A stretch of DNA of 64,000 nt from a virus, in IMG/VR virus record IMGVR_UViG_3300044609_000721, one strand, 5' to 3'. The position numbers and the translations under genes are program-made. Position 1 is the stretch's first letter, and every line of letters begins with the position of its first letter. Shown here piece after piece: positions 1-25,584 of the stretch. The notes under the pieces were generated by a model. The model had not been told where the DNA came from. It did no database searches and saw only the letters and a list, made by a program, of their open reading frames with translations.

Positions 1-3000
1 TTGAACATAATCAGTTTAGCAGCATTTCTATATGCAATATTTGAAGCACTGTCAGTTGTTCTAGTAATACCAGTTAGGTTTCCATTCTGTACTGCTTGTG
101 ATAGGATTGCGAATAGAGTAGTAATAGCGGAAGCAACATTAGCACATTTTGGTGTGCTTGTGTCTACAGTTACATCGAGGTCTTTGACTTGAGTTTTGGT
201 TGTATATCCACCTAAAGTAATGGTCTCATTACGCATGGCCTGAATTGCCATGTCCCTTGCCTGATTAAATGCATATACTGCTTGTACTTCCTCTCCAGCA
301 AGATATCCATTAGTAATGTACAACTGAGCAGCATCATACATCTTATGGTTTCCACCATAACGAATATTGAAAGACAACTCACCAAGAATCGCAATGATAT
401 CATCAATACAATTCTGATTGCCATTTGGAATAGTGAACGTTGGATACTGATTCAACATTCTTCCTACTGCAACTTCTGCAATTAGTTGCTTGTTTGCTTC
501 AATTAGATTTGCTGCATCAAAGTTTCTATTCTGGTATTGATCTCTCTCTGGTAGAAGAATAGAGATTGCCTTTGTGAATAGAGTATCAATTGCGGATTTA
601 ATATTTGCACATTGACCACCATAGGTACCATCATCTAGAGTAATTGTATTGTCAGTGTACTTAGGTGTAGACGACCATTGTGCAGAGTATATTGTATTTG
701 TTCCAGTAATTCTCCAATTATCTACAGCATATTGGCAAAGTCTATTTGTTTGCTCAAGAGCATAGATTGTTGGTAGAAGTTCATCCTTCACATATAGGAT
801 ATCATTCACAGCATTGATATAATATGTCATAGCATCAATAGTATTAGCATCACCACCAGAAATCAAGTCTGCGATGATTGATGGGATGATATAATCTTTA
901 ATGTCTCTAATGCAAGTATTTTTACCTTCTAGTCCGTTTGGATAAACAAACGCATTATATGGAACTCCATTCAAGTAGTATGTGAAATAATTAGTAGTTA
1001 ATCCTACAGATTCCTCTGCAATAAATTTCCTGTTGAACCAGAGAGCATTTGACGCATCCTTATATACATCACCAGTTGTGCATAGTACTTCATTGATCAA
1101 TGACCACAAAGTATCAATTTTGGATCTAACGTCAGCGCAATCTCCAGGATCTGTGGTAATGTCAAGAGGCTTAATAGGACTTTGATTTGTGTATTGTGGT
1201 GTTTGTGATAGATCTCCAATAACAGCTTGCTGACATAGAAGATTCATTTGCTCATGAGCATATAGACTTTGCAGAACCTGCTTAGTAATATATCTCAAAC
1301 CGCCATTTTCATCAATATAGAATCTTGCTCCAGTTAAGGTATTATAATTTCCACCCTTTTCAATATCATCAGCAACTGCTTGTAGTAGAAGATTTAGGTC
1401 AAGTTTGCATCTGCTAGTTCCATCACCTGTTCCATCCTCATCTCCTGGAATAATCAAATCAGAATATAGATTCTTCATTCTTCCAGCAGCTTCTTCGATG
1501 ATATAAGTTGCATTCAATCTAATTAAATTAGCTGCATCTCTAAATCTGTGATGTGTATCATCATAGAATTGATATGTGATAATTTTATCAGTTGCAGAAT
1601 ATACTTGCTCCACATCAAATGGGATATCCAAGTATGTGGAAATTATCGCAGTAACTGTTCCAATATTAGTTCTTGTTATAGAAGAAATTGATCCAGTGCT
1701 AATACCTTGGGTTACTATCGCAAATAATGTGGTGATAGAAGATGCAACGTCAGCACAATCTCCAGGGATATAAACTCCTGGTTCTCCAGATTGATCTCCC
1801 TCTACAGTCAGATCCTTCACTTGAGTTCTGGTTGTATAACCACCTAAAGTGATGGTCTCATTACGCATGGCCTGAATTGCAAGATCTCTTGCCTGATTAA
1901 TTGCATAAACAGACTGAGTTTCTTCACCTGCCAAATATCCATTAGTGATGTATAATTGTGCTACATCATACGCTCTATGGTTTCCACCATATTTTACGTT
2001 AAAGCACAATTCATCCAAGATAGAAATGATATCATCAATGCAGTTTTGATTTCCATTTGGTACAGTAAATCCAGGGAAGTTTGCTAGCATTCTTCCTACT
2101 GCAACATCCGCAATTAGAAGTTTGTTAGCAAGAATTAAATCAGAAGCATCTGCGTATCTTCCTGATACAATGTCATCATTTGAAACAAATGACTTATCAG
2201 TTGAAATTGTATCTCCAATAGAGAATGAACCAGACTTCTCACCAAGGAAAACATATTTTAATGCATAGTTAACTCCAATAACCTCTGCTGTGAATCCGCC
2301 ATTAGTTACAATTTGATCTCCTGCCTGGAAGTTTCCTCCCAATAGAGATTTGTATGCCAATTTCTGAACCATTGCAGTTTCATTAGCAGTAAAATCACCA
2401 GTTGAATTGATATATTCAATTTCTAGATTTTGGATAAATTCTCCATTTTGGAAAGTTGTGGAATCATCATATACATTTTCGAATGTTGTTGATGAAACAA
2501 TTTCAAATTCTGGGAATTTACCTTCGACCTTTAAAGTGGAATCATCTAAATCTACAACTTCAATACTAGACTTACTGATATCATCAATGATGACATTGGG
2601 GTATTCTGGTTGTATAATTCTGTTGTATAGCAGAGCAGAGAAAGTACTTGGATCACTAATTGAAATTGATGAAAGTGGTTCACCAGTTGTTGGATCAATG
2701 TATGGACTGATACTTGTTACTCTAGCAAGAATTCCTGTTTTAGCAGAGATGATGTAATCATTAAACTTAATATCCAATAGTCCAGAAGGACTTTCATAGG
2801 TACCAGAAGTTTTACTAACGATAATTTCATTAGTTACTATACTTGTAGTAGAATCTAGGTTGATTTCTTCAACAACAGCAGTTTTTCCGCTGGTGTTTGT
2901 GATAGATTCTTGGAATTGGAAGGTATTTGTATTTTCTAGTTCTGTTACAGAAACTAAATTAGCACTCAATCCTGTTGCAGATGCAAGAATGATTTCACCT

Positions 3001-6000
3001 TCTTGGAAAGTTCCATTGATATTGAATACTCTAATGGTGGAAGTTGTTGACGAAATTACAGTCGCTGTAGCAAGGCTCAAAATACCTCTAATTGTCTGAC
3101 CAAGTTCTGGTAGAATACCACTAGAATCTTCAATTGCAATCTCATATGATGGTAGGAATTGCAATGTTAACATTGCATAACTTACCTTTGTTGGTGCAGG
3201 AGGTGGCTCTTTAAATACGATGCTTCCTTGAATGATCTCATATGATTCTACTGGTGATTGTGCAATACCATTCAGAATTACTTGTACTTGACTGGTATTG
3301 GCAATAATTGTAGAACCATCAATAGTTAGTGGGAAAGAAGTTCTTTCACCATCAAATAGATTTGAAATATCATCAATTTTCTGTACATATGAAGTGAGAA
3401 TTTCTTCCGATGAAGTTAGTCTCTTAGTTCTGAATAAAACTTGAGTATTATCAAACTCTTTGTATACAGGTTCAACGAGACCAAAGTTGTCAATATTTGC
3501 AACTACTGAACTCTCAATCAAATTAACACTCTTTGTCAATTGGAAATCTGTTTTATCAGTCAGTCCTTTTTCTTCATTGTAAACTCCAATTTCACCAAAT
3601 AATTTAAATCCAGTTGGGTGAGTGTTGTCTAGTACAATAGTCTTCCATTGGTCGATTGAAACTGGGCTCTTAATGTTATATGAGAAGGCCTGATATAGAT
3701 AAGAGTCCTGTACCTTCTGTACAATCTCGTTGGTTTTACCAACGTCATCGAGGAACTTACCAGCAGTTTTTGTGATTGAATCGACCTGAATAACTCCTTT
3801 CGCAGCATTGATATTATTGATTGTTCCACTAGATTTAGAAATTGTTCCAGTCACAATCTGACCTTCTGCGAAGGTACCTTCGGTATCGATTAGTTTTAGT
3901 AGTCTAGGACCAATTTGCCATCCATCATTTCCAGAAACATATCCTTTTGCAGAAGAGTTTTCCAGAGAATCTCCCTGATAAACCAATTCACCAGAAAGGA
4001 ATCTACCAGTTTCTACAACTGCTTCTGCAGATCCACCAAATGAATTGGTTAGTAGAATCTGTCTACCACTACCAGTATTCACGAATGAAATATAGTTACC
4101 AGATTCTGCATCTCCTGGTGTCAGAGCAATTCTCAACTGATCATTTTCAAGACCAGCAGTAGTTCCAGAAATAGCATAGTAAATTTGACCAGGAACAATG
4201 TATCCAAATGAAGTGATTGGGAATGCTGCACCCTCACCCAAATCTTGAATGTCAAATGTTATTTCAGACCCATTTCCAATACCATGTGGGAATGGTAGTT
4301 GGAATAGACCAAGATCTAGGTTGATTACGTAGGTAAATGTAGATTTTAGTTCAATTGTTGGTTCGGTACTATATCCAAATCCAGGATTTTTGATTAGAAT
4401 ACCGCTAATTCTACCGTTTCTAATTTCTGCCTCAGCAGTAGCGCCAGATCCACCGCCACCAGTGATTACAACTTCAGGGATAGAAGTATAACCGCTTCCT
4501 GGATCAATTACTTTAATATTGCTCAGTACACTAGTATTGATTAATTGTAAGTTTACTGGGAAAGTGATTTCTGGTCTAAGTGTATAGTCATGGGTATAAT
4601 CGAAACCAAAGTTATTGTTTCTTAATTTTTTGATTTTACCTACGTTCTCACCCTTAACGAAAATAGAAGCTCCAGTTCCTTTTGGTGGAATGATTACCTC
4701 AAGAACGGCACCAGAACCAGCTAGATTTGGACCAAGAATACCATCAATAGCATCAACATCAACAAATGCCTCAGTGTATCCCTTTCCAGGATCCGTAACA
4801 ACAACCTCAATGATTTGGCCAACTGGATCACTATTTCCATCTACTCTAATTCTAACCTTACCTCCGTTACCATCTCCAAGAATTGGTACACCAAAGTACT
4901 CACCTGGTTCATATTCAGTTCCAGGAGTTCTAATTTCAACTCTCTCAATCTTTCTAGATGATTGGATGTCAGTAATGATTGGTAGTTTTTTGTAGAATCC
5001 ACCACCACTGATCAGACGAATCGATGAAATCGATCCAGCAACTTTTGTTGACTCTGTTGAGTATGATGATGTGAATGACTGTGCATTCTTTTCTGGGTCG
5101 ATATCCAATTTAAACTTAAACTTATTAGCACCCGTAGTGACAGTAGCTCCTTCCAAAGAACTAATTTCAAATCTTCCAATGTATGGACTTCTAACTACGT
5201 CAATGTAGGAAGATTTTGCTACTGGACTGAATTCATTAATTCTGGATGGGTCTGCATAGTAACTGATATTAGAAACATCATCCGTAACCTTAAACGAAAT
5301 GAATGGAGATACCCCAGGAGCATCTAATCCAGGAGTTCCTCTTCTTACAATATTTTTGAATGTGTATTCAATCTTGTTGAGATTATCTCTATAGAATGAT
5401 AGGTAATATCCTTGGTTTGATGGATCTGATACATCAAACGTATACTGTTGCCCATAAATGAATTTAAATACTGGATGCTTGACGTAAATTAAGATTTGCG
5501 TACCAGATCCAATAAACGATCCTGGAACTTCCCTTATTTGGAAAATAAATTCTCTCTGAGAAAGAACCTGATCTACGTAGAAAGATCCATCTGCATAGGT
5601 ATATTGTGGACTTGTTGATCCAAAAATATTATCTCCAGCATTTAAGTAATGTGAAGTTGCACTTCTAATGTAAATTCTGTTTGTATTTGAAATTTCATCA
5701 ATTTGAAGAGTCTTCTTGAGATTTGTGATTAGAGTAATCTTAGTTACAGAGGAAAGACCTGCAATAGTGACACTATTTCTTGCAGTATTGAAACTAAAAT
5801 ATGAACTTCCTAGAACAACTACAGAACCTTTAGCATACGGAGATCCTGCAATAATTTCATCAATTCTTACTGCATAGTCATCATCACTATATGGTTTAAA
5901 TGTTGCCTCTACTTCTACTGGGATATTAATTGCAAAAGTTCCTGGAGAAGTATTTACTACGCCCTCAAATCCATAATTTACAATTTCATTGATGGATTCA

Positions 6001-9000
6001 TCCGAACTTCCTAAAGTGCCAGAATCAACTACAAAAGAACCAGTAGTATCAGCAACATAGATGTAATTATTGGAATAATCGATATCTACAATTTTTGCAG
6101 ATGCAATGATAGCATTCAGACTATTTCTTTGAAGAAGATTTGTACCAACATTGAATCTAAAATCTTGATTGATGTGTAATTGTCTAATGTTATCTAACTT
6201 CGATACATTGAAGTAATTGAAGAAGAATTTGCCAAATGCTTTAGATGAAAATACTGCCTTTCTTCCACCTGGAGAAGGAACTGTAGCAGTTCTTGTACTC
6301 CAAGAATCATATACTGTGGTAGGAATATGATAATCTTGTGTCAATCCTGATGTAGCAGCATTGAAATCTAATATTTGAAGTCCATCTGGACCAAGTGCAT
6401 ATGGGATATTGATGAGTTCTAAATTATTAACTACAGGAATAGTAATATTGGATCTGGTAATATCAAAACTATTATTTGTCAAATTGATAGTACCCATTCT
6501 CTCTGAGTCTGCATTCTTATCAAACTTCATTATGAAACCACTAGGATTCGCATAGTCAAAACCACTAAATTCTGCAGTAGGAGCACTGGTGTATGCTATA
6601 GCGTAATTACTATATCTGAACTCATCCAACTTGACTGGCCAAGAATTATATGATGTAGTTGATCCAATTTCTACTGTTGATGGATTTAGATTGAAACCAG
6701 TGGTAATCTGTGCAACAGATGAACCATTAAAATATAAAGTATAAGTTGCAATCGAAGAAGATGTGTTATAAGATTTGCTTACTGAAATGTGTCTATATCC
6801 ACTACTCAACAGAGTCACTGCGTTAGTGATAGTAGTAAACTGTGAAATGGTAGCCCCACCATTGGAGATTCTTAATTTTCCAAAAGTTGATGGTGAAGAA
6901 CTATCAGCAAATACCGAAACTTTAATTGAATTTGTTCCATCGGTTATGGTCAATAAATCTGGAACTTTTGCAGATGCTGCAGTATCCCACTTAAACCATC
7001 CTTCAATGGTCCAAACGTTTGACTGTGTTGTTAGTGCTGTTGCAGATAATTTTGCATTTTGTGAAATAGTGTAGGCATTGGTGCCGAACTTGGGATCAGT
7101 GTTTACACTAACTGTTCCTGTGGATGTTAGGTTTGCATATCTACCTACAGTATCTGAATATGAAGATCCCTTATATAAGAACTGTGTTCTATTTTCAATG
7201 ATATTACCAACTAAAGTAGGATCTCCAGAAACATCAGATGAACACTTGGAAATTTCTACTCCTTCTAGAGAGGTCATCTCATAAGAATTCAAGATATCAC
7301 CATTAAACTTACACTTAATGATACCAGAATGCAATTGCGATGTGATATCCACTGCAGTATATCCGATTGCAATTTCACCAAATATATCGATGGATGATTT
7401 TGCTGCGGATAGTGAAGTGATACTTGGGATTGAATATTCTTTATTGAAGATTAAATCTCCATCTGCATCAACTTTAATTAGTGCTAGTTTTGTTTTTGTT
7501 GATGTGGATGAGTTCTCTAATGCAGATGTGATGTATAACTCATCATACTCATCGATAAGCAGGCTCAGATCTTCGAACTTGGTATTTGAATATGATATTT
7601 CCTTTTGCCAAATCGTGTTGATCTTAGATCCATCAATCTTACACTTCACTAGAAGAATATTATCTGCTGCGGTTGACTGACCCAAAATATAAATGTTATT
7701 GTCACTATCAACTTGAATTGACTGTAGTTTTTCTGATGAAGATGTTGAAGTAATTTTTCTCTTGATTAGGACATCACCACCATTAGAAATATAGAATACA
7801 ATTCCGTCGTTTACTCCATTGCTATTTGTTGTGGTATATCCACACGCAACTACATTCTCTCCATATGCTGCAATATCTGTGATGTAATCATTTCTGTTTA
7901 CTCCACTAATACCAGCAAGTTCTCTTTGCCAAGATAGAGATACTTCAGTGCCACTAGAATTTTCAGTATATTTTGCAATGAAAATATCTGGGTTGAATGC
8001 AGATGCTGAAAGTGGATTTGGGTAAGTTTGTCCAATTACATAAACATCTAGTCCATTTTTAGTTACGGATAATAATTGACAACGCTTCGCCTGTGCCGAA
8101 GGTTGAATAGATGTTAGTGATTTTGACCATAGTGTAGTACCCTCAGCATTTAACTTACTGATGTAACCATGGATATCACCATTTGTTGAAGTCACTGATC
8201 CAACATAGTATAGATTTTTGTTCTGATCTACAAATGAATTGTTAATGTTTACTCCAGATTGATACTTTTTGTTTACTGAATAGTATACTGATCTCTTTTG
8301 GATTTGTGGGTGAGATATTCTAATTTTTGGATTGTCAACATATCCTCTACCAGAATTTGTGATATTGATTTTATCGAGGATACCTGTTTTTCCTACTACT
8401 GCCTTGACCTCGGCTTCTTGACCACTAATACTATCGATAAATGCTTCAACTTCGATATTTGGATCATATCCAATACCACTTACTTCTACACTTACTTCCT
8501 CTAAACCTTTTACGGTAATGACCTTGAGTGTTTTACTTGTAGGTTCCATGATTGGAGTTGTATCAACACTCACAAAGTCACCGATTTCCATATTGTGTGG
8601 TACAGCGGTCTGTACTACACCAAAATATTCATCCTGTGCGGTATTGTATTCGTATGTGTATGAAGTGATCTGTTCTCCTTGAATGGATTTAATTGATGCA
8701 GATGCACCATATCCTTCTGTACCTTCATCATCAAAAATCAGTCTATCATTGACTTGATAGTTAATACCTGGGTTTTCGATCAAGAAGTCTGAAATTTTTG
8801 CTTCTTCAAACTTTGTTGTAGTTTCAACTTCAATATCAACCTTTGATGAAATATCAATCTTGGGGAAATAATCGAAGAGTTCTAACTTAGATTCTTCGAA
8901 AATTTGATCAGGATCACTCGCCTCAGATGAATCGATGAAACCATCTCTATTTTCATCCTCAATTTCAAACGTTAGGACATCACCATTCTCTAGAGTTAGA

Positions 9001-12000
9001 GCATTTGTACTTTCATTTGGATCTCTTTCTACATCAATATCAACATTTTCAAATGGTGCTCTGTATCTAACAATACCAGTAGGGATGTTAGACTGGATTG
9101 CAAACTGCGTTAGATTCCAACTATCTGGAATTGAGTAGAAGTTTGGTCCAATGATATATGGGAAAGCAGCACTTCCATCTGCATTTAAAGTTACGAAATA
9201 AGCATACGTACCTTCTGGGAATTCAGGAGTTTTGGTGAATCTGCCATTATATTGATCGAGATAAAATGCCTCACTTCTGAATACATACTCATAATCTTGA
9301 ATGAAAGTTCCTGCAGGGAAGTCTTGTAAAGATGGACCTGCAATTCTATATGGTTCTGGGTTAGTTACACTATTGAATACCAGATTCGTCTTAAGGCTGT
9401 AACTACTTTGGATTGGTACAATGTTGCTACTTAGATTTGTTGGGTCAGACAGTCCATATGGACCATAAATGGGATTGCCATCAAATGCCCATCCAATGAT
9501 TGGAGAGTGAACAATACCAGACTGCTTCTCTACAATAACTCCATTTTCTACAGTTAAGTTATCGCCAAGTACATATCTTAGTTGCTTTGGATTTGATACG
9601 TGCCCATATTCTCCACCAAATTGCTTGTTAAATCCTTCGAAGATAGAACCGTTTGCATAATCAAAGTTTGTGTTGCTGTTTAAGTTATAAGTCCACTCAA
9701 AAATTTCAGTTTGGAAATCTGCTCCTTCTCCAATAGATTCTAGTCTAATTTGAGTAGTACCTGGTTTATACCCAATACCTCTATTCAGAATAGTGATGGA
9801 AATCACTCTTCCTGCTTCTAGTCCTTCGGATTGAATATTTGCTCTTGCTACAGCACCATAACCATCACCAGTAATAATGACCTTAGGAGCGGTAGTATAA
9901 CCGTTACCAGAGGCGATAACTGCAATTGATACAATCCTGCCATTATTTACATACGCCTGTGCTGCAGCGCCTTCTCCGCTGCTTAGAACGACTTTAGGCT
10001 CTGATGTGTAATCTTGACCAGATGATACTACAAGTACTTCTTTGATTGGTCCTCTAACAAACGCCTCAGCAGCTGCTCCAGACCCTCCTCCACCAGTAAT
10101 TGTAATGGTTGGTTTTGATGTATATCCTGAACCTGGGGTATTTACTAAAATTCTAGATACAACTCCTTTTGTGACGATAGCAGTTGCTGATGCACCCTCT
10201 CCGTCGCCACCACCAGAAATTGAAACTAGAGGAGATGATGTGTATCCAGAACCACTATTTGTTACAACAATCTCAGAAAGAGATCCATTTACGACAACAC
10301 TACCAGATGCACCAGTACCATTTCCACCAACAAAATCAAGTACTGGTGGATTTGCTGCGTCATAATTCTTTCCATAATTTAGTATATTTACTTTAGTTAC
10401 TCCACCATATTTGTAGGTGGAATCTGATTTGTAGTTCCATACAGAAATACCATTCACAAATGAACCAACAGGACCATATTGTGTTTCTGGTTTTAGTGAG
10501 ATTGTTGATGGTACTTTGGGGAATCTATATAATTTTCTTTGGTTGCCTGGAAGTAATGAAGTACCTACAAAGGGACCAATCTTATAGTTTGGAATACCTG
10601 ATGTAGCTACATAGACATACTTGCCATTAAAGAAAGTATTCTGAATATTGGTAGCAAACTTATTAATTGAGTTGTTGATTGATGGAACATCACTCTTTCC
10701 TTTGTTCAAGTCAATCGAGATTAGGATATTGCCTTGAGGATTTAGAGTTGCTGGTTGAGGAAGTTCGTATTTGAATACAGTTGCGCTTTCTCTTGAAGTT
10801 ACTAGGAACGTTCCATTGTATACAATTGGGTTTGCACCATATACAGTAACTTGATCTCCAACTAGAAGACCGTGAGCAGATGTGCAATTGACAGTCGCAG
10901 TTTGATCATTGATACCACCATATGTGATACTATCGATCTGCAGTAGTTTTTTGACGTTATACAACCAAGATCTGATTAGATTGTTATCTTCAATAGATCC
11001 TAATTTAGATACTGAAAGTTTATCTCCAGGTAGATAGTAACTACTTTCATCAGTTAGTTGGGTATTACCAGACTCAACGATACCAAGAACTGATAGAACT
11101 ACTTCTTCGGTAGTTCCCTGATTCGAATAGATGTAGAAGTTTGATGTACAAATAGTTCCAGAATCCCAAGACGCTGGTTCCTGATTAATGCCTCTAGTAC
11201 ATTCAATAAATTGAGTTAGTGATTTCTCCTTATAGCGAATTATCTCAGTACCAATAATAACTTCTCCGTTCTTTTCTGGCCATCCAATTGTGGAGTCTAC
11301 AGTAATAATAGAATCTTGATCTGATAGTGGTTCTGCAAGTCTAGTCTTATATGGAATGACGAATTTACCATTAATGGATTCTTCAGAAAGAATCAATTCA
11401 TATACGTCAAAGTTTGCAGTCTGAATTGCAGTGAAGTTCTCTACTGTTGCAGATGCATACAGAACATTAGTATCCACTACATCCGCATTTTGCTCTAGAA
11501 GAGAGTCTTTTAGATTTTGGGGATTTCCAGAGATTAGTTTAGCACGAAGGATGGTATCAATAGACCAAGTTGCTGCAGATGGTTTAATGATCTGGTCTTT
11601 TGGATAGGTGATATCAATTTCAACACCGTATAGAATTTTAAATAGGTATGCAATTGAATTCTTAGTACCCTTAGATGCATAGAAATCTTTTATAGTTCTA
11701 AGAACATTTGAGATGTCAATAGAATCAATATCCAGTTGAGGCATTCCTGGAAGATACTGAGATGTAATCTTCTCCATGATTTTTCTGAGGAATACCGCAT
11801 CAAGTCCTTTAACATCGCTACCACTGATGTGAGATGCTTTGATGGATTCTGATTCTGATTTAAATACAGCATTATCCTCAGAATCATATTCTACGATTCC
11901 ACTAACTCCTCTGCTACACTGAGCAAATTCTGACTTTGTATAGTTTTTACCTGGGTTAATTACACGAAATCCAGTAATTTCACCAATTCCAATTTGAGCA

Positions 12001-13805
12001 GAAGCTTTTGCTCCAACTGGAGAAGAGATGAATACCTTTGGTGGAAACTCAATCGAATAATTTTCTCCAAATTCAGTAATATTGATATCGATAATCTGCC
12101 CGTTGAAAACTGTCGCTACAGCCTTTGCGCCAGTTCCTCCAATTGGGTTACCTAAGTTATCTACTCTATCATCAACGATGTATACGCTAGGAACGTCATC
12201 ATATCCAAAACCTCCAGATAGAAGTTCAATACCAATAACTCTTCCAAAACTATCAACTTCAACATCCAAAATTTGAGCACCAGTTGGTTCAATTACCGAA
12301 ACTCTTGGAAGTTCTGTTTGACTGTATCCAACTCCACCAGAGATGACAGTGATTGAAATGAGTTCACCAGAGGCGTTTATATTGCCCTGTAGGAGTGCTG
12401 TAATTCCATTTGCGGCGTCTGGGGCATCAATGTAGATTTGAGGCGCTGTAGAGTATCCAGAACCACCTTCTAAGACTTGTACAGATAGAACTACACCATT
12501 CTGATTAACGACAACATTTCCTACTTTTGCTCCAGATGGATTAACAAACTGAATTCTTGGTACGAAATCATATCCACTTCCACTATCGATAATATGGATT
12601 TCGTCAATACCACCATTATCGTTTACTGTAACGAGTCCTTTCGCAACAGATCCTTCACCATTAGTGGGAGCTTGGATAGAAACTAGTGGAGGATTTTCCT
12701 TGGAGTATCCTTTTCCAGAGTCAATCAGTGTGACTGTTTTGACTCCACTTACTAGAGCTTCTGCAGTTGCATTAGTACCAGTACTCTTAACGAGAGAGAC
12801 TTTTGGTGTATTTTCTACTTTATATCCAGATCCACCATTTTTAACTAGGATAGATTCTAGTTGACCAGAATCATTTACTACAGAAACTGCAGAAGCATCG
12901 CTACCAACATTAAGTAGAGGTGCATTGATGTATGCTACAAAAACCGATTCTGTTGGATACTGTTTAAAGATGATAGTGTCAGAATACAGACTAAAATCTT
13001 TAATTGGTGTTAGTAAATTTCCATCTACAATTGCAATAACTAAACTTGTAGATGAAGGAGAAGATGCAACTCCATTCACCTTAAGTTTGAAGTCATATCT
13101 AACTTCTTCTACGTTAGTATTGAGAATTGGTAATTGGTCAAATACCGCAATTTCAGATTCTTGGAAACCCTTTAGATAGATAATTTTAATATCTTCACTA
13201 GTATCTCCAAGATTTATTGGATCATATTGTCTTGGTGGATTAGTGAATCTAATTTTGTCACTTAAGATTTGATAATCAACGCCAGGAATTAAGTATTCAT
13301 TGTATAATTTTACAATGACATGCTCATTTGATGGTGGATAAACTGGTTCGTTATTTACCGTTAAATCGAACTCGAAGTTTATACCATCAAATTCTCTATA
13401 TGGATTGAATAGAGGAACTAGTTTTTTATTGAATTCTGCATATGAAATATCAGGAGTTAGGATGACATTTGGAGACTTCCTGACAAATTCATAATAAATT
13501 ACTTCATCATCAATCAGTAGAGTTCCATTTTCTTCTGGAAATCCATCTGTTGTTTCTACTTCAATATTTCTGATATCTGCAGAGATGTCAGAAATCAACT
13601 TCGTATTGCTTCTTAACTGAGATACTTCATACTTAGAAAGATTGAAGTAGTCTGGTAGATTATTTAAAATGCCAACAGGCCCGCCACCTCTCTCCTGAGA
13701 ACTATAATATGCTCTCAGAAATTTCTCGAAGAGTGGATTTTCCTCTTTAATGAAATCTGGTACTTGATTTAGTACAGAAAGGGATGCTGATGCTAAGTTA
13801 TGCAT
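1..13805 (-). CDS. gp7: Giant baseplate wedge initiator / virion structural protein (cyanophage gp7-like), 3' end outside window, >4600 aa
   Basis: Hand translation from ATG at 13805 (MHNLASASLSVLNQVPDFIKEENPLFEKFLRAYY) found no stop, and the frame is consistent at checkpoints (11757 and position 3). It has the gp7-like segment IKDFYASKGTKNSIAYLFKILYG, many GSGY beta repeats, a YHYH-like domain, propeller-like and LamG-like segments, and lies directly downstream of gp6. Confidence 0.88.
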   Translation of the reverse strand, partial: MHNLASASLSVLNQVPDFIKEENPLFEKFLRAYYSSQERGGGPVGILNNLPDYFNLSKYEVSQLRSNTKLISDISADIRNIEVETTDGFPEENGTLLIDDEVIYYEFVRKSPNVILTPDISYAEFNKKLVPLFNPYREFDGINFEFDLTVNNEPVYPPSNEHVIVKLYNEYLIPGVDYQILSDKIRFTNPPRQYDPINLGDTSEDIKIIYLKGFQESEIAVFDQLPILNTNVEEVRYDFKLKVNGVASSPSSTSLVIAIVDGNLLTPIKDFSLYSDTIIFKQYPTESVFVAYINAPLLNVGSDASAVSVVNDSGQLESILVKNGGSGYKVENTPKVSLVKSTGTNATAEALVSGVKTVTLIDSGKGYSKENPPLVSIQAPTNGEGSVAKGLVTVNDNGGIDEIHIIDSGSGYDFVPRIQFVNPSGAKVGNVVVNQNGVVLSVQVLEGGSGYSTAPQIYIDAPDAANGITALLQGNINASGELISITVISGGVGYSQTELPRVSVIEPTGAQILDVEVDSFGRVIGIELLSGGFGYDDVPSVYIVDDRVDNLGNPIGGTGAKAVATVFNGQIIDINITEFGENYSIEFPPKVFISSPVGAKASAQIGIGEITGFRVINPGKNYTKSEFAQCSRGVSGIVEYDSEDNAVFKSESESIKASHISGSDVKGLDAVFLRKIMEKITSQYLPGMPQLDIDSIDISNVLRTIKDFYASKGTKNSIAYLFKILYGVEIDITYPKDQIIKPSAATWSIDTILRAKLISGNPQNLKDSLLEQNADVVDTNVLYASATVENFTAIQTANFDVYELILSEESINGKFVIPYKTRLAEPLSDQDSIITVDSTIGWPEKNGEVIIGTEIIRYKEKSLTQFIECTRGINQEPASWDSGTICTSNFYIYSNQGTTEEVVLSVLGIVESGNTQLTDESSYYLPGDKLSVSKLGSIEDNNLIRSWLYNVKKLLQIDSITYGGINDQTATVNCTSAHGLLVGDQVTVYGANPIVYNGTFLVTSRESATVFKYELPQPATLNPQGNILISIDLNKGKSDVPSINNSINKFATNIQNTFFNGKYVYVATSGIPNYKIGPFVGTSLLPGNQRKLYRFPKVPSTISLKPETQYGPVGSFVNGISVWNYKSDSTYKYGGVTKVNILNYGKNYDAANPPVLDFVGGNGTGASGSVVVNGSLSEIVVTNSGSGYTSSPLVSISGGGDGEGASATAIVTKGVVSRILVNTPGSGYTSKPTITITGGGGSGAAAEAFVRGPIKEVLVVSSGQDYTSEPKVVLSSGEGAAAQAYVNNGRIVSIAVIASGNGYTTAPKVIITGDGYGAVARANIQSEGLEAGRVISITILNRGIGYKPGTTQIRLESIGEGADFQTEIFEWTYNLNSNTNFDYANGSIFEGFNKQFGGEYGHVSNPKQLRYVLGDNLTVENGVIVEKQSGIVHSPIIGWAFDGNPIYGPYGLSDPTNLSSNIVPIQSSYSLKTNLVFNSVTNPEPYRIAGPSLQDFPAGTFIQDYEYVFRSEAFYLDQYNGRFTKTPEFPEGTYAYFVTLNADGSAAFPYIIGPNFYSIPDSWNLTQFAIQSNIPTGIVRYRAPFENVDIDVERDPNESTNALTLENGDVLTFEIEDENRDGFIDSSEASDPDQIFEESKLELFDYFPKIDISSKVDIEVETTTKFEEAKISDFLIENPGINYQVNDRLIFDDEGTEGYGASASIKSIQGEQITSYTYEYNTAQDEYFGVVQTAVPHNMEIGDFVSVDTTPIMEPTSKTLKVITVKGLEEVSVEVSGIGYDPNIEVEAFIDSISGQEAEVKAVVGKTGILDKINITNSGRGYVDNPKIRISHPQIQKRSVYYSVNKKYQSGVNINNSFVDQNKNLYYVGSVTSTNGDIHGYISKLNAEGTTLWSKSLTSIQPSAQAKRCQLLSVTKNGLDVYVIGQTYPNPLSASAFNPDIFIAKYTENSSGTEVSLSWQRELAGISGVNRNDYITDIAAYGENVVACGYTTTNSNGVNDGIVFYISNGGDVLIKRKITSTSSSEKLQSIQVDSDNNIYILGQSTAADNILLVKCKIDGSKINTIWQKEISYSNTKFEDLSLLIDEYDELYITSALENSSTSTKTKLALIKVDADGDLIFNKEYSIPSITSLSAAKSSIDIFGEIAIGYTAVDITSQLHSGIIKCKFNGDILNSYEMTSLEGVEISKCSSDVSGDPTLVGNIIENRTQFLYKGSSYSDTVGRYANLTSTGTVSVNTDPKFGTNAYTISQNAKLSATALTTQSNVWTIEGWFKWDTAASAKVPDLLTITDGTNSIKVSVFADSSSPSTFGKLRISNGGATISQFTTITNAVTLLSSGYRHISVSKSYNTSSSIATYTLYFNGSSVAQITTGFNLNPSTVEIGSTTSYNSWPVKLDEFRYSNYAIAYTSAPTAEFSGFDYANPSGFIMKFDKNADSERMGTINLTNNSFDITRSNITIPVVNNLELINIPYALGPDGLQILDFNAATSGLTQDYHIPTTVYDSWSTRTATVPSPGGRKAVFSSKAFGKFFFNYFNVSKLDNIRQLHINQDFRFNVGTNLLQRNSLNAIIASAKIVDIDYSNNYIYVADTTGSFVVDSGTLGSSDESINEIVNYGFEGVVNTSPGTFAINIPVEVEATFKPYSDDDYAVRIDEIIAGSPYAKGSVVVLGSSYFSFNTARNSVTIAGLSSVTKITLITNLKKTLQIDEISNTNRIYIRSATSHYLNAGDNIFGSTSPQYTYADGSFYVDQVLSQREFIFQIREVPGSFIGSGTQILIYVKHPVFKFIYGQQYTFDVSDPSNQGYYLSFYRDNLNKIEYTFKNIVRRGTPGLDAPGVSPFISFKVTDDVSNISYYADPSRINEFSPVAKSSYIDVVRSPYIGRFEISSLEGATVTTGANKFKFKLDIDPEKNAQSFTSSYSTESTKVAGSISSIRLISGGGFYKKLPIITDIQSSRKIERVEIRTPGTEYEPGEYFGVPILGDGNGGKVRIRVDGNSDPVGQIIEVVVTDPGKGYTEAFVDVDAIDGILGPNLAGSGAVLEVIIPPKGTGASIFVKGENVGKIKKLRNNNFGFDYTHDYTLRPEITFPVNLQLINTSVLSNIKVIDPGSGYTSIPEVVITGGGGSGATAEAEIRNGRISGILIKNPGFGYSTEPTIELKSTFTYVINLDLGLFQLPFPHGIGNGSEITFDIQDLGEGAAFPITSFGYIVPGQIYYAISGTTAGLENDQLRIALTPGDAESGNYISFVNTGSGRQILLTNSFGGSAEAVVETGRFLSGELVYQGDSLENSSAKGYVSGNDGWQIGPRLLKLIDTEGTFAEGQIVTGTISKSSGTINNINAAKGVIQVDSITKTAGKFLDDVGKTNEIVQKVQDSYLYQAFSYNIKSPVSIDQWKTIVLDNTHPTGFKLFGEIGVYNEEKGLTDKTDFQLTKSVNLIESSVVANIDNFGLVEPVYKEFDNTQVLFRTKRLTSSEEILTSYVQKIDDISNLFDGERTSFPLTIDGSTIIANTSQVQVILNGIAQSPVESYEIIQGSIVFKEPPPAPTKVSYAMLTLQFLPSYEIAIEDSSGILPELGQTIRGILSLATATVISSTTSTIRVFNINGTFQEGEIILASATGLSANLVSVTELENTNTFQFQESITNTSGKTAVVEEINLDSTTSIVTNEIIVSKTSGTYESPSGLLDIKFNDYIISAKTGILARVTSISPYIDPTTGEPLSSISISDPSTFSALLYNRIIQPEYPNVIIDDISKSSIEVVDLDDSTLKVEGKFPEFEIVSSTTFENVYDDSTTFQNGEFIQNLEIEYINSTGDFTANETAMVQKLAYKSLLGGNFQAGDQIVTNGGFTAEVIGVNYALKYVFLGEKSGSFSIGDTISTDKSFVSNDDIVSGRYADASDLILANKLLIADVAVGRMLANFPGFTVPNGNQNCIDDIISILDELCFNVKYGGNHRAYDVAQLYITNGYLAGEETQSVYAINQARDLAIQAMRNETITLGGYTTRTQVKDLTVEGDQSGEPGVYIPGDCADVASSITTLFAIVTQGISTGSISSITRTNIGTVTAIISTYLDIPFDVEQVYSATDKIITYQFYDDTHHRFRDAANLIRLNATYIIEEAAGRMKNLYSDLIIPGDEDGTGDGTSRCKLDLNLLLQAVADDIEKGGNYNTLTGARFYIDENGGLRYITKQVLQSLYAHEQMNLLCQQAVIGDLSQTPQYTNQSPIKPLDITTDPGDCADVRSKIDTLWSLINEVLCTTGDVYKDASNALWFNRKFIAEESVGLTTNYFTYYLNGVPYNAFVYPNGLEGKNTCIRDIKDYIIPSIIADLISGGDANTIDAMTYYINAVNDILYVKDELLPTIYALEQTNRLCQYAVDNWRITGTNTIYSAQWSSTPKYTDNTITLDDGTYGGQCANIKSAIDTLFTKAISILLPERDQYQNRNFDAANLIEANKQLIAEVAVGRMLNQYPTFTIPNGNQNCIDDIIAILGELSFNIRYGGNHKMYDAAQLYITNGYLAGEEVQAVYAFNQARDMAIQAMRNETITLGGYTTKTQVKDLDVTVDTSTPKCANVASAITTLFAILSQAVQNGNLTGITRTTDSASNIAYRNAAKLIMF

Positions 13806-22345: not shown

Positions 22346-22510
22346 TCAAATGTCCTTAAACATTCTCACACCAGTTCCGTCGTCATCAATTTCGTACCTT
22401 AATACGTCTCCTTCCATTAATCCGAGTTCATCAATAATCTCTTGAGGAAACTCTAAAATTAAATCCCCTTCTGGGGTCTCTTCTAACTCTATGATAAACT
22501 TTCTTGACAT
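22346..22510 (-). CDS. AbrB/MazE/SpoVT-like small DNA-binding protein (54 aa)
   Basis: MSRKFIIELEETPEGDLILEFPQEIIDELGLMEGDVLRYEIDDDG matches the AbrB pattern (LxFPxxIxxxLGLxEGDxL). Confidence 0.65.
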   Translation of the reverse strand: MSRKFIIELEETPEGDLILEFPQEIIDELGLMEGDVLRYEIDDDGTGVRMFKDI

Positions 22511-22511
22511 G

Positions 22512-22745
22512 TCATACCTCTTCAAGTACTTCTGTGATATATCTATACTCGGAGAGTTTTCTAGCTACGCGGTGTGCTTCCTTCTCATCAAATAACAGGT
22601 ACTGACCTTTCGTATCACAACACTCCAAGTGTCCCTCCTCTTCGAGAAATTTGGATAAATTGTGAAAGATTGGTCCTGCCTGTTTTGTTTGATCGTAGGG
22701 TATCGCAACCCTCACATAATGCTTAGTAGTCATCATACCCACCAC
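22512..22745 (-). CDS. Hypothetical protein
   Basis: ORF track; tiled. Confidence 0.65.
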   Translation of the reverse strand: MVGMMTTKHYVRVAIPYDQTKQAGPIFHNLSKFLEEEGHLECCDTKGQYLLFDEKEAHRVARKLSEYRYITEVLEEV

Positions 22746-23022
22746 TAGCGAGGCTTGCCTGAAACTCAGGACTCTCGTAGATTCTTTTGATACTTCTCTG
22801 AAAAGGTGTTAATTCCTCCTCTGTAATTTCATCGCGGTTCAATCCGTAGGCTTCACGAATATCTTTGAATTCCTCTAACGTGAGAACTTTGATAGAATCT
22901 TCAACGGCTTCCTTGACGAACCACTTGAAGGAATCCACTGCGCGTTCCTCAGATTCTCCTAGAATCCCTACGAACTTCGTCTCGTTCTTTGTGTCAGTAT
23001 AGCGAATTACCCAATAGTCCAT
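22723..23022 (-). CDS. Hypothetical protein
   Basis: ORF track; GAGGA RBS upstream. Confidence 0.7.
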   Translation of the reverse strand: MDYWVIRYTDTKNETKFVGILGESEERAVDSFKWFVKEAVEDSIKVLTLEEFKDIREAYGLNRDEITEEELTPFQRSIKRIYESPEFQASLASGGYDDY

Positions 23023-23137
23023 TTTATTCCTCAGAAAAATTTTTTATATTATAGAGACCCTAAAAGGGGACCCACTCTTATATATTCGGCGGCCGTTTTT
23101 ATTTTCTTGGAGTCCCTTGGAAAAATAAACAGAGATA

Positions 23138-23144
23138 TATTTAG
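23138..23144 (-). promoter_or_regulatory. Late promoter variant CTAAATA
   Basis: TAAATA core in the spacer upstream of the 23022-to-PAAR gene run. Confidence 0.5.
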
Positions 23145-23258
23145 ATGCCTTTCGTAACACTTTATAGATTACAAGGGACCCTTTTATTAATATAAGGGCG
23201 CCCCGATATCACGATAACGTTATATCATACTGCCTGTCCGCCCTAAGTTATATCGAGA

Positions 23259-23280
23259 GAGGGGCAATTGACTGCCCCTC
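23259..23280 (-). terminator. Stem-loop GAGGGGCA-N6-TGCCCCTC, probable terminator at the early/late boundary
   Basis: Perfect 8-bp stem 13 nt after a double TGA stop; U-tract is weak. Confidence 0.5.
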
Positions 23281-23295
23281 AGTATATCTAACTCA

Positions 23296-23451
23296 TCAGA
23301 AGTCGATCATCTCCATAGTGGGAACATTGTCGCTCTGAGTGTCATCATTGCCCTCGCTAATCGTGCCGCTGGTGATGGTATCGAGGATCGACAGAATCTC
23401 GTTGCCAGTGTTACCTTGACGGAGCATGGAGATGAGAACTTGCTTAGACAT
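23296..23451 (-). CDS. Small acidic hypothetical protein (51 aa, MSKQVLISMLRQGNTGNEILSILD)
   Basis: Hand-translated; ends in TGA TGA. Confidence 0.7.
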   Translation of the reverse strand: MSKQVLISMLRQGNTGNEILSILDTITSGTISEGNDDTQSDNVPTMEMIDF

Positions 23452-23525
23452 AGTAGGTCGGTTCGTTGTTAGTTAGGGGTTAAACAGTGAGTGTCTTTAT
23501 AGGGCGCATCTCATTCCCTTGGGTA

Positions 23526-23786
23526 TTATGGCAGATCTACACCTGTCATCTCAAAATCAAAAACAAGACGCTTTGCAAAGTCTTCTGCTTCTTGCTTTGT
23601 TGCGTATTTGGTGACAGTTCCATCAGCATATTTGACCAGTTTGAATACATGTCCAATCATGCAATCTTTCAAGACTTTTTTATGTGACCAGATGGCAGCA
23701 CGATAACCCGATCCGTCTTTAATTTTCTTTGCCATATAAGGACGGGGCAAAGATCCAGGGGCCACGCGAATAGTGAAGATGGACAT
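23526..23786 (-). CDS. Hypothetical protein (likely start MSIFTIRVAP)
   Basis: The track start at 23870 runs through the DnaA-box element, so the ATG at 23786 is preferred. Confidence 0.65.
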   Translation of the reverse strand: MSIFTIRVAPGSLPRPYMAKKIKDGSGYRAAIWSHKKVLKDCMIGHVFKLVKYADGTVTKYATKQEAEDFAKRLVFDFEMTGVDLP

Positions 23787-23829
23787 GTTTGTTGTTTCGA
23801 GGGGGGAGAATTGATGATTTTGAGAATAG

Positions 23830-23862
23830 TTTTCCACAGATTTGAGTATAACCTGTGGAAAA
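23830..23862. promoter_or_regulatory. Inverted pair of cyanobacterial-type DnaA boxes (TTTTCCACA-N15-TGTGGAAAA)
   Basis: Perfect boxes at 23830-23838 and 23854-23862; spacer contains TGAGTATA. Confidence 0.6.
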
Positions 23863-23866
23863 CTTA

Positions 23867-24184
23867 TCAAGCGAGACGCATACCAGAGAAGAAAGGAATC
23901 GTCCCGTAGTCGTTAGAACTGAAGAACCATTGTCCCTTCTTCTGGAATACACGTTCATCGCCAATTCCATGCTCGGAGAGAATAGCATTCAGGCGAGACT
24001 TTGTGGTGTTTGACTGATACCCACCATCGAAAAGTTCGATCCAAGTCTCACCAATACGAGCGATCAGATTGCCATGGAGAAAGACATCAGTAACGAAGGA
24101 ACATGCAACGACTTCAGTGTTATCGAGTTTGAAGTCTTTGCCTGCAGTGATAGCAGCATTCATCAGACGTTCGATCTTACGCAT
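23867..24184 (-). CDS. Early hypothetical protein (MRKIERLMNAAI)
   Basis: ORF track; first gene after the class II promoter at about 24255. Confidence 0.8.
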   Translation of the reverse strand: MRKIERLMNAAITAGKDFKLDNTEVVACSFVTDVFLHGNLIARIGETWIELFDGGYQSNTTKSRLNAILSEHGIGDERVFQKKGQWFFSSNDYGTIPFFSGMRLA

Positions 24185-24252
24185 GAGAGGCGATTGAAGG
24201 GGGTTTAGAGAGGTCGGAGGTAGTGGGAGATCCCCTCCCCTCCGATGAACCT

Positions 24253-24317
24253 AATATAGGGCATTCTGGGGGGTCTGGGAGATGGGGTGTGCCACTAAGA
24301 TTTCTGGTCGGTGACAC
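24253..24317 (-). promoter_or_regulatory. Class II early promoter (TATATT -10, no -35, degenerate GTGNCAC upstream element)
   Basis: CAC of the upstream element lies 37 nt from the -10 edge, as in the 27489 and 31160 copies; shares the downstream GTTCATC with other promoters. Confidence 0.6.
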
Positions 24318-24346
24318 TTGACAAATGCTCTGAGTCGTGGTAGAAC
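24318..24346 (+). promoter_or_regulatory. Divergent sigma70-type promoter TTGACA-17-TAGAAC, no plus-strand gene downstream
   Basis: Perfect -35, 17-nt spacer, extended TG; the -10 lacks the final T. Confidence 0.45.
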
Positions 24347-24369
24347 GGGCTTAACTTGCATCTCTAGAG

Positions 24370-24476
24370 TACATTTATCTCTCAATACATTTCACGCACA
24401 TGTATTTTTTTGTACATTTTTAATTAACACTTTTTCCACAGGTTTTTCCACAATGAGTATATCTAACTGTGGAAAA
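24370..24476. other. AT-rich element with 3x TACATTT followed by three DnaA-type boxes (24432-24440, 24444-24452, inverted 24468-24476); candidate origin
   Basis: Seen directly in sequence; the function is inferred. Confidence 0.5.
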
Positions 24477-24487
24477 CTACGCGGAAC

Positions 24488-24622
24488 TCAATCATAGATC
24501 CTTTGAGACCTTTCATACAGACGCCTATCCAAATGATCGAGATATTCATCTGGTTTCATTACATCATCCCAATCAAGATCATCTCGTTCAATGTAATCAG
24601 TGTTGTAGTAATCGTGATTCAT
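24488..24622 (-). CDS. Small acidic hypothetical protein (44 aa)
   Basis: Hand-translated MNHDYYNTDYIERDDLDWDD. Confidence 0.55.
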   Translation of the reverse strand: MNHDYYNTDYIERDDLDWDDVMKPDEYLDHLDRRLYERSQRIYD

Positions 24623-24657
24623 CTTGTTAGTGGTAGTGTTCATGATAGTGTTATTCT

Positions 24658-24912
24658 TCAGATGTAAATATCAGGATCAATGCTATACTCTTCTAGCAAT
24701 TCAGGATAATAGTCGTTTGCTTCTTTTACGAGTTCGTTATCAGTCATCTTCTCCATATTCTCTACTAGCATATCAAATGCGAATCGTACTAGTGTATCCA
24801 TGTCCATGCTATCTACGACTAGTTCAGCATAATCAGAGATGAGAGAATCACGATCGAAGGTGTTAGTCATTTGTTTGTGTTTGATGATTTCAGTGTAAAG
24901 GTCGATGCTCAT
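24658..24912 (-). CDS. Hypothetical protein
   Basis: ORF track; tiled. Confidence 0.65.
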   Translation of the reverse strand: MSIDLYTEIIKHKQMTNTFDRDSLISDYAELVVDSMDMDTLVRFAFDMLVENMEKMTDNELVKEANDYYPELLEEYSIDPDIYI

Positions 24913-25009
24913 TTGTGAGTCTTGTTTGTTGGTTTGTTGTTGAAAAGTATCGGCCTGATGGGTGTACTTTGTGTGCGAACTTGATTCAGTTTGCGTTGCT
25001 CTCGGGACA

Positions 25010-25177
25010 TCAGTTAGCGTGAAGAATGGTGAGCATTTGATCGTAGAACTTATCTGCTTTCATCACTACATTATGCGACTCGGTTGCATCTTCGATGTCG
25101 TATTGTGTCATCTCTAGCGTTTGAATCACCTCAGAGAGTAGACTTTCCAGGTAGATTACTTTATCAGCATCACTCAT
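25010..25177 (-). CDS. Hypothetical protein (likely start MSDADKV)
   Basis: Internal ATG overlaps the upstream stop. Confidence 0.6.
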   Translation of the reverse strand: MSDADKVIYLESLLSEVIQTLEMTQYDIEDATESHNVVMKADKFYDQMLTILHAN

Positions 25178-25328
25178 GAACTTGCCCTTGCAGAGTGTTA
25201 CCGACGAAGACAAATGCAGATCCTATAGTATAACGAACTTGAGGGGAAATGAGGCAGAGAACAATGATCAGAACAGTGAAAAGATTCATTTTGTCAGGTG
25301 ATTTGAAGGTCAGAGATTTGCGAGACAT
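25170..25328 (-). CDS. Small membrane protein
   Basis: Hydrophobic LFTVLIIVLCLIS segment. Confidence 0.5.
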   Translation of the reverse strand: MSRKSLTFKSPDKMNLFTVLIIVLCLISPQVRYTIGSAFVFVGNTLQGQVHE

Positions 25329-25332
25329 TGAA

Positions 25333-25584
25333 TCAGAGATCTTGCAGCATTTCGTTGATCTCAATATGATTAACTTTCTTGCTATTCCACTTCACACCAT
25401 CGGGAGTTTCTTTCTGACCACAATCATACAACAGTTCACAGAGTTCAGTATAATCAGCACAAGTCTTTGCCGCATCATACAGACTCTCATCATTCTGAAT
25501 CCAGAGACTAACATTCCAGGTCTCGTAATTCGTCCAACCGTTATAGGTGGTGTCAGTGATGTTGGTTTGGAAAGCGACAGTCAT
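25333..25584 (-). CDS. Early hypothetical protein (TYNGWTNYETWNVSLWIQNDE)
   Basis: First ATG downstream of the promoter at 25632. Confidence 0.75.
   Translation of the reverse strand: MTVAFQTNITDTTYNGWTNYETWNVSLWIQNDESLYDAAKTCADYTELCELLYDCGQKETPDGVKWNSKKVNHIEINEMLQDL

Follow-up and report, generated by a model that had tools for sequence, protein, structure and literature searches.

T4-type phages are the textbook case of independence from the host replication initiator, and five perfect copies of a cyanobacterial DnaA box, clustered at a single locus of such a phage, raise the question of which protein reads these sites and what they do there. The locus lies in a stretch of 64,000 nucleotides from IMG/VR record IMGVR_UViG_3300044609_000721 (hereafter the window), whose source is a Kyanoviridae (T4-like) cyanophage with Synechococcus phage S-CREM1 as closest isolate (~82% nucleotide identity; host Synechococcus CB0101). 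A first-pass annotation, which was made from the sequence alone, had already identified the phage as T4-like, and this was borne out. It had further proposed that the phage recruits or titrates host DnaA, with the boxes serving as a datA-like sink, as a DnaA-assisted origin, or in the control of flanking early promoters. Cyanomyoviruses account for the death of a large share of the picocyanobacteria in oceans and lakes, and to our knowledge neither their origins of replication nor the logic of their early regulation has been mapped. Literature searches retrieved no relevant data on cyanomyovirus transcription start site maps, R-loops, or marker frequency, and no relevant paper on DnaA boxes in cyanophages.

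The nonamer TTTTCCACA is the published "species-specific" consensus of the cyanobacterial DnaA box (PMC4674748, PMC2275245), as had been stated in the first-pass annotation, and the window contains five perfect copies of it, at 23830 (+), 23854 (-), 24432 (+), 24444 (+), and 24468 (-), all inside 23830-24476. A sixth perfect copy was not found in either orientation elsewhere in the 64-kb window, and the exact recount confirms the earlier count. The mean number of copies expected per window is 1.15 in dinucleotide shuffles and 1.29 under a first-order Markov model, none of 300 simulated windows contained at least three copies inside 650 bp, and the probability of at least five copies in any 650 bp is ~6e-10 after correction. 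One-mismatch variants of TTTTCCACA are not enriched in the window (24 seen vs. 29 expected). The two inverted pairs had also been described correctly, with N15 spacing, a C after each, and TGAGTATA in both spacers. Beyond that description, the boxes at 24432 and 24444 are only 3 bp apart and thereby make up a tandem double box, and the element as a whole is bounded by perfect inverted repeats of 13 nt (23827-23839 and 24467-24479). The boxes are grouped in two cassettes, and the locus comprises the following features (window coordinates):

23827..23864, no strand: cassette B with two perfect boxes, 23830-23838 (+) and 23854-23862 (-), facing each other across 15 nt
23867..24184, minus strand: Kyano_Gp96 (PF23790) gene, 105 aa, between the two cassettes (Pfam E 2e-37; phrog_554)
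24190..24252, minus strand: 5' leader of the Gp96 mRNA, including a G/C-rich inverted repeat, kept in the close clade (direct reading, alignment)
24253..24281, minus strand: position of the sense early promoter, -10 TATATT at 24258-24253, -35 position at 24281-24276 degenerate (CTCCCA)
24318..24346, plus strand: antisense promoter-like site, TTGACA at 24318-24323, 17-nt spacer, TAGAAC at 24341-24346
24362..24431, no strand: A/T-rich block with TACATTT repeats, adjoining the double box, conserved as AAAT..TAAAAAAAYATA
24431..24479, no strand: cassette A with three perfect boxes, 24432-24440 (+), 24444-24452 (+), and 24468-24476 (-)
24488..24643, minus strand: small early gene upstream (51 aa, phrog_18655), whose 3' end abuts cassette A

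All genes at the box locus are encoded on the minus strand. Cassette B is a palindrome with arms of 15 nt, starts 4 nt past the Gp96 stop codon, would form a 15-bp stem as RNA (-20 kcal/mol), and is also present in S-CREM1 and the loci L008, L009, L017, and L047. Cassette A starts 11 nt past the stop codon of the upstream 51-aa gene; its double box is faced by the third box at a distance of 15 nt, which gives the layout box-> N15 <-box N3 <-box on the minus strand. Within the A/T-rich block, the 40-mer 24397-24436 is among the least stable 0.9% of all 40-mers in the window and a 22-nt imperfect direct repeat occurs at 24371 and 24398; the block is a candidate unwinding element.

Alignment with relatives resolved these features into a unit with the order, along the genes, of cassette A, A-rich block, variable stretch, antisense promoter, sense promoter, and leader. 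The consensus is TTGACA-17-TAnnnT for the antisense promoter and TTGACA-17-TATAYT for the sense promoter, the latter being what the relatives carry at the aligned sense-promoter site. The antisense promoter-like site aims at the A/T-rich block and cassette A; its -35 hexamer is near-invariant across the relatives, and the -10 hexamer reads TAnnnT in L053, L028, L047, L069, L017, and L300. A promoter scan called neither promoter in the window, where both are degenerate and the antisense site is weak, but called the sense promoter in L053 and L107 and the antisense promoter in L053 (TTGACA-17-TATTGT with an extended -10). The sense transcript of L107, a compact relative, would include a second three-box cassette at approximately +25 to +75, whereas in the clade of the window the Gp96 gene intervenes between the sense promoter and the downstream cassette. 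The two cassettes thus appear to cap two back-to-back promoters of the sigma70 type. Neither this larger conserved unit nor the DARS-like layout of the three-box cassette had been noticed in the first-pass annotation.

The proteins encoded nearby were inspected as well. The AlphaFold2 model of Gp96 has a pLDDT of 92, and its best VIA-align Z-score was 4.0; Foldseek found no fold match in the PDB, and there was no PDB sequence match. A confident model that lacks a fold match speaks neither for nor against Gp96 as a putative binder of the boxes. Just downstream of cassette B, an 86-aa ORF (23526-23786, minus strand) had no Pfam or PHROG match and looks like an insertion, the counterpart region in S-CREM1 being non-coding only. 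A 59-aa ORF located 1.3 kb from the boxes (22346-22525, minus strand) shows a weak MazE/AbrB-like similarity (E 0.009, below the cut-off) and possibly encodes a small DNA-binding early protein; its counterpart in S-CREM1 is annotated as an antitoxin. An open frame of >4,500 codons (1-13805, minus strand) runs off the start of the window and has homologues near box clusters in 31 viral loci. No tRNAs were detected in the window, and a search of 23000-25500 against Rfam (E up to 1) returned nothing. GC skew was set aside as evidence for an origin because it tracks gene orientation.

If the boxes are read by a protein, they should outlast the sequence around them, and comparison with related phages indicates that they do. 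The genome of S-CREM1 contains six copies of TTTTCCACA in 178 kb, five of which occupy the syntenic place in the same layout, with spacers that have diverged in sequence and length. In the intergenic alignment, which includes relatives found via Gp96 and not via boxes, the box columns are identical at 27 of 27 positions in S-CREM1, L052, L084, L028, and S-PM2, compared with 38-70% for the other 279 columns of the unit. The boxes are thus invariant while their flanks diverge, and the count in other cyanomyoviruses that had been suggested in the first-pass annotation, genome-wide and at the syntenic position, revealed that they are kept in place in related phages. Among whole records, the cluster is present in S-CREM1, DSL-LC02, S-SZBM1, and S-PM2. 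A blastn search with cassette A yielded further intergenic matches in the Sf-CH phages, S-RIM44, Syn1, S-CAM3, S-H38, S-RIM32, S-CAM1, S-SCSM1, and DSL-LC03; in those with known positions for both, the match is located 1.5-2 kb upstream of the Gp96 homologue.

The boxes are nevertheless optional. No box cluster was found in the whole records of S-B43, P-TIM40, S-8S55, S-SCSM2R, S-CAM9, S-PRM1, and S-T4, and 7 of the 11 isolates ascertained by Gp96 lack it; among the IMG/VR loci retrieved by Gp96 alone, 14 of 80 carry at least two perfect boxes within ~1.3 kb of the gene. The number and orientation of the boxes also vary between relatives, with all-direct arrays in L047, L069, L077, and L087 and a double box that is inverted relative to the window in L047 and L069. 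A profile of the unit that was built without the boxes found the unit in more than 100 loci on IMG/VR contigs; it is apparently single-copy per genome in S-CREM1, and S-B43 has kept it with zero perfect boxes in 214 kb. Any role of DnaA must accordingly be modulatory. The 19 Gp96-ascertained loci in which the unit is present divide into 10 with DnaA boxes only, 4 with only a different palindrome (ATTCTCAATA and TATTGAGAAT separated by a gap of 8-10 nt), 2 with both, and 3 with neither.

This other palindrome occurs in perfect form in boxless relatives (L012:1087-1116, L026:3793-3821, L050:581-609, L312:5588-5615, and ~25 other loci), next to the A-rich block or a short distance upstream of early promoters, and is absent from 23000-25500 of the window. 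Its core is identical to the centre of the FurA consensus of Anabaena (PMC4005646), and by this resemblance the palindromes may be host Fur boxes in cyanomyoviruses, largely as an alternative to the DnaA boxes. The unit of S-PM2 is followed by an AT-rich stretch with long inverted repeats and tandem repeats of a "taagatttc" unit (L311:3700-3880), and the tRNA-Asn and tRNA-Leu genes annotated in RefSeq over its box cassette (NC_006820.1 19177-19333; L311:3440-3596) were rejected, as ARAGORN finds no tRNA there; the annotation probably reflects a coordinate offset in the record. Among IMG/VR viral contigs with perfect box pairs (L088-L308), 114 of 221 share no protein with the window, so that arrays of TTTTCCACA also exist in other viral contigs.

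Several properties of the arrays point to DnaA as the protein concerned. In vivo, the DnaA of E. coli favors double boxes whose members are separated by 2-3 bp, and it is able to block RNA polymerase (PMC11317965); the pair at 24432/24444, with its 3-bp gap, is such a close tandem pair. The gap reads ACC in 21 of 49 tandem pairs of cyanophage-like contigs and in 23 of 45 cyanobacterial pairs, and the double box with the ACC gap recurs as an identical 21-mer next to dnaN or dnaA in numerous large genomes of cyanobacteria. The phage boxes share with cyanobacterial oriCs a preference for G as the following base. Gaps of inverted pairs in cyanophage contigs fall into two classes of 4-5 and 14-16 nt, with peaks at 4 and at 14-15 nt, which are one helical turn apart and are thus a signature of protein phasing and not of loop length, and the variable number and orientation of boxes between relatives likewise argues against a hairpin. 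These regularities of host-like grammar are, like the sites, their selective conservation, and the anatomy of the unit, directly visible in the DNA. The DNA-binding domain IV of DnaA (PF08299) is absent from S-CREM1, S-PM2, S-SZBM1, and DSL-LC02, all of which bear boxes, and this makes host DnaA the obvious binder.

On the host side, the oriC spacers of two Cyanobiaceae-like genomes (identified by thrC-dnaN synteny) contain one-mismatch boxes only, and the preferred site of the host's DnaA is thus taken from the literature on other cyanobacteria. Genomes of the host family carry ~1-33 perfect boxes (41 genomes), which is the control level; together with the imperfect oriC boxes this means that the phage sites are at least as good as any in a host-like genome. 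Several small genomes of the phylum sample (G011, G028, G041, G065, G089) were discarded as hosts because their DnaN is only 31-37% identical to the cyanobacterial query and not of the MKLVCSQ type. Prochlorococcus-like genomes (G432, G407; L453:1014-1067, L455:984-1037, L454:974-1273) contain, in a spacer that is not oriC, two perfect boxes in inverted orientation at a distance of 36 nt and, after a recG-like gene, a second pair of boxes ~290 bp apart; both pairs recur in G430, G417, G409, and G405. Taken together, we consider it likely, on the grounds of site identity, arrangement, and conservation, that the five nonamers are docking sites for host DnaA.

What DnaA would do at these sites is a separate question. 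The first proposal, that the phage recruits or titrates host DnaA, holds in so far as the conservation of the boxes fits a protein site, whereas none of its three suggested roles is settled. Control of the flanking early promoters fits best among the three, but in a modified form, since the boxes lie downstream of the back-to-back promoters and not over them. We infer binding by DnaA and each functional step that follows from the arrangement of the sites. The early control unit of the Kyanoviridae, which is conserved and apparently present in a single copy, would be flanked by two DnaA-docking cassettes, with each of the two back-to-back sigma70-type promoters transcribing toward one cassette. 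DnaA would bind the double box and its facing partner cooperatively, and the bound protein would act at the cassettes as a roadblock or as the anchor of a loop. Such a roadblock would limit the transcripts that leave the unit and couple early transcription to the state of host DnaA; if the unit is an R-loop origin of these phages, the firing of this origin would likewise be tied to the DnaA state. Gating of the two early transcripts by DnaA at both cassettes, and of origin firing if the unit is an origin, is the explanation that we favor, tentatively and at somewhat less than even confidence.

Instead of gating transcription, the cassettes could manipulate the host DnaA pool, by DARS-like stripping of ADP to yield ATP-DnaA or by a datA-like sink that grows as the phage genome multiplies. 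In the DARS core, boxes I and II point in opposite directions across a space of 5 bp and box III shares the direction of box II (PMC6868365), and DARS1 of E. coli, as we read it in the bioD-uvrB spacer, has the layout box-> N5 <-box N3 <-box in agreement with that report. Cassette A shows the same order and orientations on the minus strand, but its first gap is 15 nt and not 5; in S-PM2, this gap is 4 nt. When loci were selected on the double box alone, any third perfect box next to it was on the DARS-type side in 15 vs. 2 cases among cyanophage-like contigs and in 19 vs. 1 among bacterial contigs. We know of no description of DARS activity in cyanobacteria. With five boxes in 650 bp, the locus also has the size of a datA-type cluster (~5 boxes), and replicating phage DNA would outnumber the perfect boxes of host-family genomes. 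However, a sink has no need for a fixed place inside a promoter unit and at transcript ends, cassette B has two boxes only, the boxes are dispensable among close relatives, and nothing was found that speaks specifically for a datA-like sink. Action on the DnaA pool is therefore judged unlikely.

A true DnaA-driven origin, in which DnaA would oligomerise from the double box and melt the A/T-rich block as at a bacterial oriC, is suggested by the very A/T-rich block next to the double box, by the presence of a box cluster at each end of the unit, an arrangement shared with some plasmid origins, and by the apparent single copy of the unit in S-CREM1. The bacterial BUS combines tandem boxes in a fixed orientation with three or more DnaA-trios (NAN), which have to fall within 16 bp and on the strand and side dictated by the box orientation (PMC8287927, PMC6669920), and in B. 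subtilis the orientation of boxes 6/7 is essential (PMC6669920). The tandem boxes are present at the phage locus. However, by the (NAN)x3 rule (PMC8287927) there are no DnaA-trios on the required strand and side, where three consecutive NAN are missing from each of the three frames of the 15 nt, and the A-rich block lies on the other side. In L047 and L069, the double box has the reverse orientation with respect to the A/T block, the gap between box and block varies from 2 to ~11 nt, the boxes are missing from many relatives, and T4-type origins work via R-loops without DnaA (PMC3016281). An oriC-like, DnaA-assisted origin as envisaged in the first-pass annotation is thus a poor fit, and we regard a true DnaA-driven origin as quite improbable. 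A T4-type R-loop origin requires different parts, and one of these, the A+T-rich element, is present in the block 24362-24431 with its stretch among the least stable 0.9%; a promoter reading into it would be the TTGACA-17-TAGAAC site at 24318-24346, which is uncalled in the window and called at the homologous site in L053. A plasmid-type origin would have iterons and a Rep gene; neither was found in the window, where the weak 22-nt repeat in the A/T block is the only repeat of that sort.

The sites could also be operators of another protein that shares the DnaA-box sequence, such as an early DNA-binding protein of the phage or a different host factor. Palindromic sites with helical phasing are typical of dimeric regulators, the weakly AbrB/MazE-like 59-aa ORF (22346-22525; E 0.009, below the cut-off; annotated antitoxin in S-CREM1) lies 1.3 kb away, and boxless relatives have a different palindrome in or near the unit. 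Against such an operator, all nine positions, the following G, the 3-bp tandem gap, and its ACC filler match the host consensus and cyanobacterial oriCs, and the all-direct arrays of L047, L069, L077, and L087 are not palindromic. P-TIM40 has an AbrB-like gene and no box cluster, and Gp96, whose model lacks a DNA-binding fold match, is encoded by many boxless phages. Recognition by a protein other than DnaA hence has a low probability.

Finally, that the cassettes act as nucleic-acid structures, either as 3'-end hairpins that stabilise or terminate early mRNAs or in PeSL-like recombinational shuffling of the gene between them, is very unlikely, since the points in its favor (good RNA hairpins 4-11 nt past stop codons at both cassettes, the -20 kcal/mol fold of cassette B, a terminator-like score of the downstream cassette in L107, the 13-nt perfect inverted repeats that bound the element, local inversion of the double box between relatives, and the PeSL stem-loop/promoter cassettes that flank variable ORFs in other T4-type phages; PMC4122927) are opposed by stems that consist of the same nonamer without compensatory changes in phages with change-saturated flanks, tandem and all-direct arrangements that are unable to pair, the lack of a U-tract after the stems and of any intrinsic terminator (G+C-rich stem plus U-tract) in 23400-24900 and of a terminator call in the window, loop lengths quantised by helical turns, and the confinement of TTTTCCACA to one locus in 64 kb with no promoter call beside either cassette, where PeSLs are stem-loops followed by early promoters and repeated through variable regions. 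A separate hairpin, GTGCCAG - loop - (C/G)TGGCAC, occurs in L012, L016, L033, L068, and other loci ~60-100 nt upstream of the Gp96 start, where it immediately precedes the -35 element of the early promoter; the combination is reminiscent of a PeSL stem-loop followed by its promoter (PMC4122927), and no exact copy of the GTGCCA..TGGCAC hairpin upstream of early promoters was found in the window.

In a more far-reaching reading, T4-like cyanophages, although virulent, would possess an element dedicated to sensing or rewiring the initiator of host replication, whether it operates as a DnaA-gated R-loop origin or resets the nucleotide state of DnaA in the manner of a DARS-type cassette. In sister lineages it would be exchanged for host-Fur-box-like sites, which would make the unit a plug-in sensor of host physiology. 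We hold this extended view doubtful. The conserved array of perfect boxes in a unit of promoters and an A/T-rich block is a concrete, short, and mutable target, which lets one ask where cyanomyoviruses start replication and whether infection is coupled to the replication or growth state of the host. Existing phage-host pairs, S-CREM1 on CB0101 and S-PM2 on WH7803, are suited for such tests.

Host DnaA boxes are known to serve phage replicons in the plasmid origin oriR of P1, where they are located at both ends of the origin core, and in lambda. Both are temperate replicons with their own initiator and iterons, whereas T4-like phages are virulent. The locus described here has in common with P1 oriR and lambda the presence of host DnaA boxes on a phage replicon, and differs in that no Rep gene or iterons were found. 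Among T4 origins, oriF (uvsY) and oriG (gene 34) consist of a promoter and an A+T-rich element that forms an R-loop (PMC3016281). They resemble the unit in the T4-like genome, in a promoter with an A+T-rich element ~50-100 nt downstream, and in being compact and non-coding. However, the T4 promoters are MotA-dependent middle promoters that operate without a host initiator, whereas those of the unit, whose origin activity is a candidate function, are of the sigma70 type, back-to-back, and accompanied by DnaA boxes at both ends. The PeSL cassettes of T4-type phages (PMC2839356, PMC4122927) are likewise short stem-loops that flank a small gene of a variable region, but their stems are phage-specific G/C runs in many copies per genome, while the stems of the present locus are the host DnaA box, occur at one locus, and have counterparts in arrays that are unable to pair.

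Cyanobacterial oriC arrays share with the phage cassettes the identical nonamer, the ACC-gap double box, and the preferred following G (PMC4674748, PMC2275245). They differ in orientation, being divergent (<- ... ->) in L434, L436, L447, and L390 where the phage cassettes are convergent, and the phage locus has neither DnaA-trios nor a dnaA or dnaN neighbour. DnaA of E. coli as transcription factor and roadblock (asnC/mioC termination; double-box regulon, PMC11317965) likewise involves high-affinity double boxes with 2-3 bp spacing in transcribed DNA downstream of promoters; the present locus belongs to a phage, and its cassettes lie on either side of divergent promoters. The closest likeness in layout to cassette A is the core of E. 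coli DARS1/DARS2, which has three boxes in the same order with boxes II and III in tandem at a 3-bp gap. The first gap in the window is one helical turn longer than in DARS1, all three boxes of cassette A are perfect where only box II is perfect in DARS1, and cassette A belongs to a virulent phage, where it is part of a promoter unit and has a second cassette at a distance of 600 bp. This likeness of layout suggests that DARS-type cores may be widespread beyond the enterobacteria.
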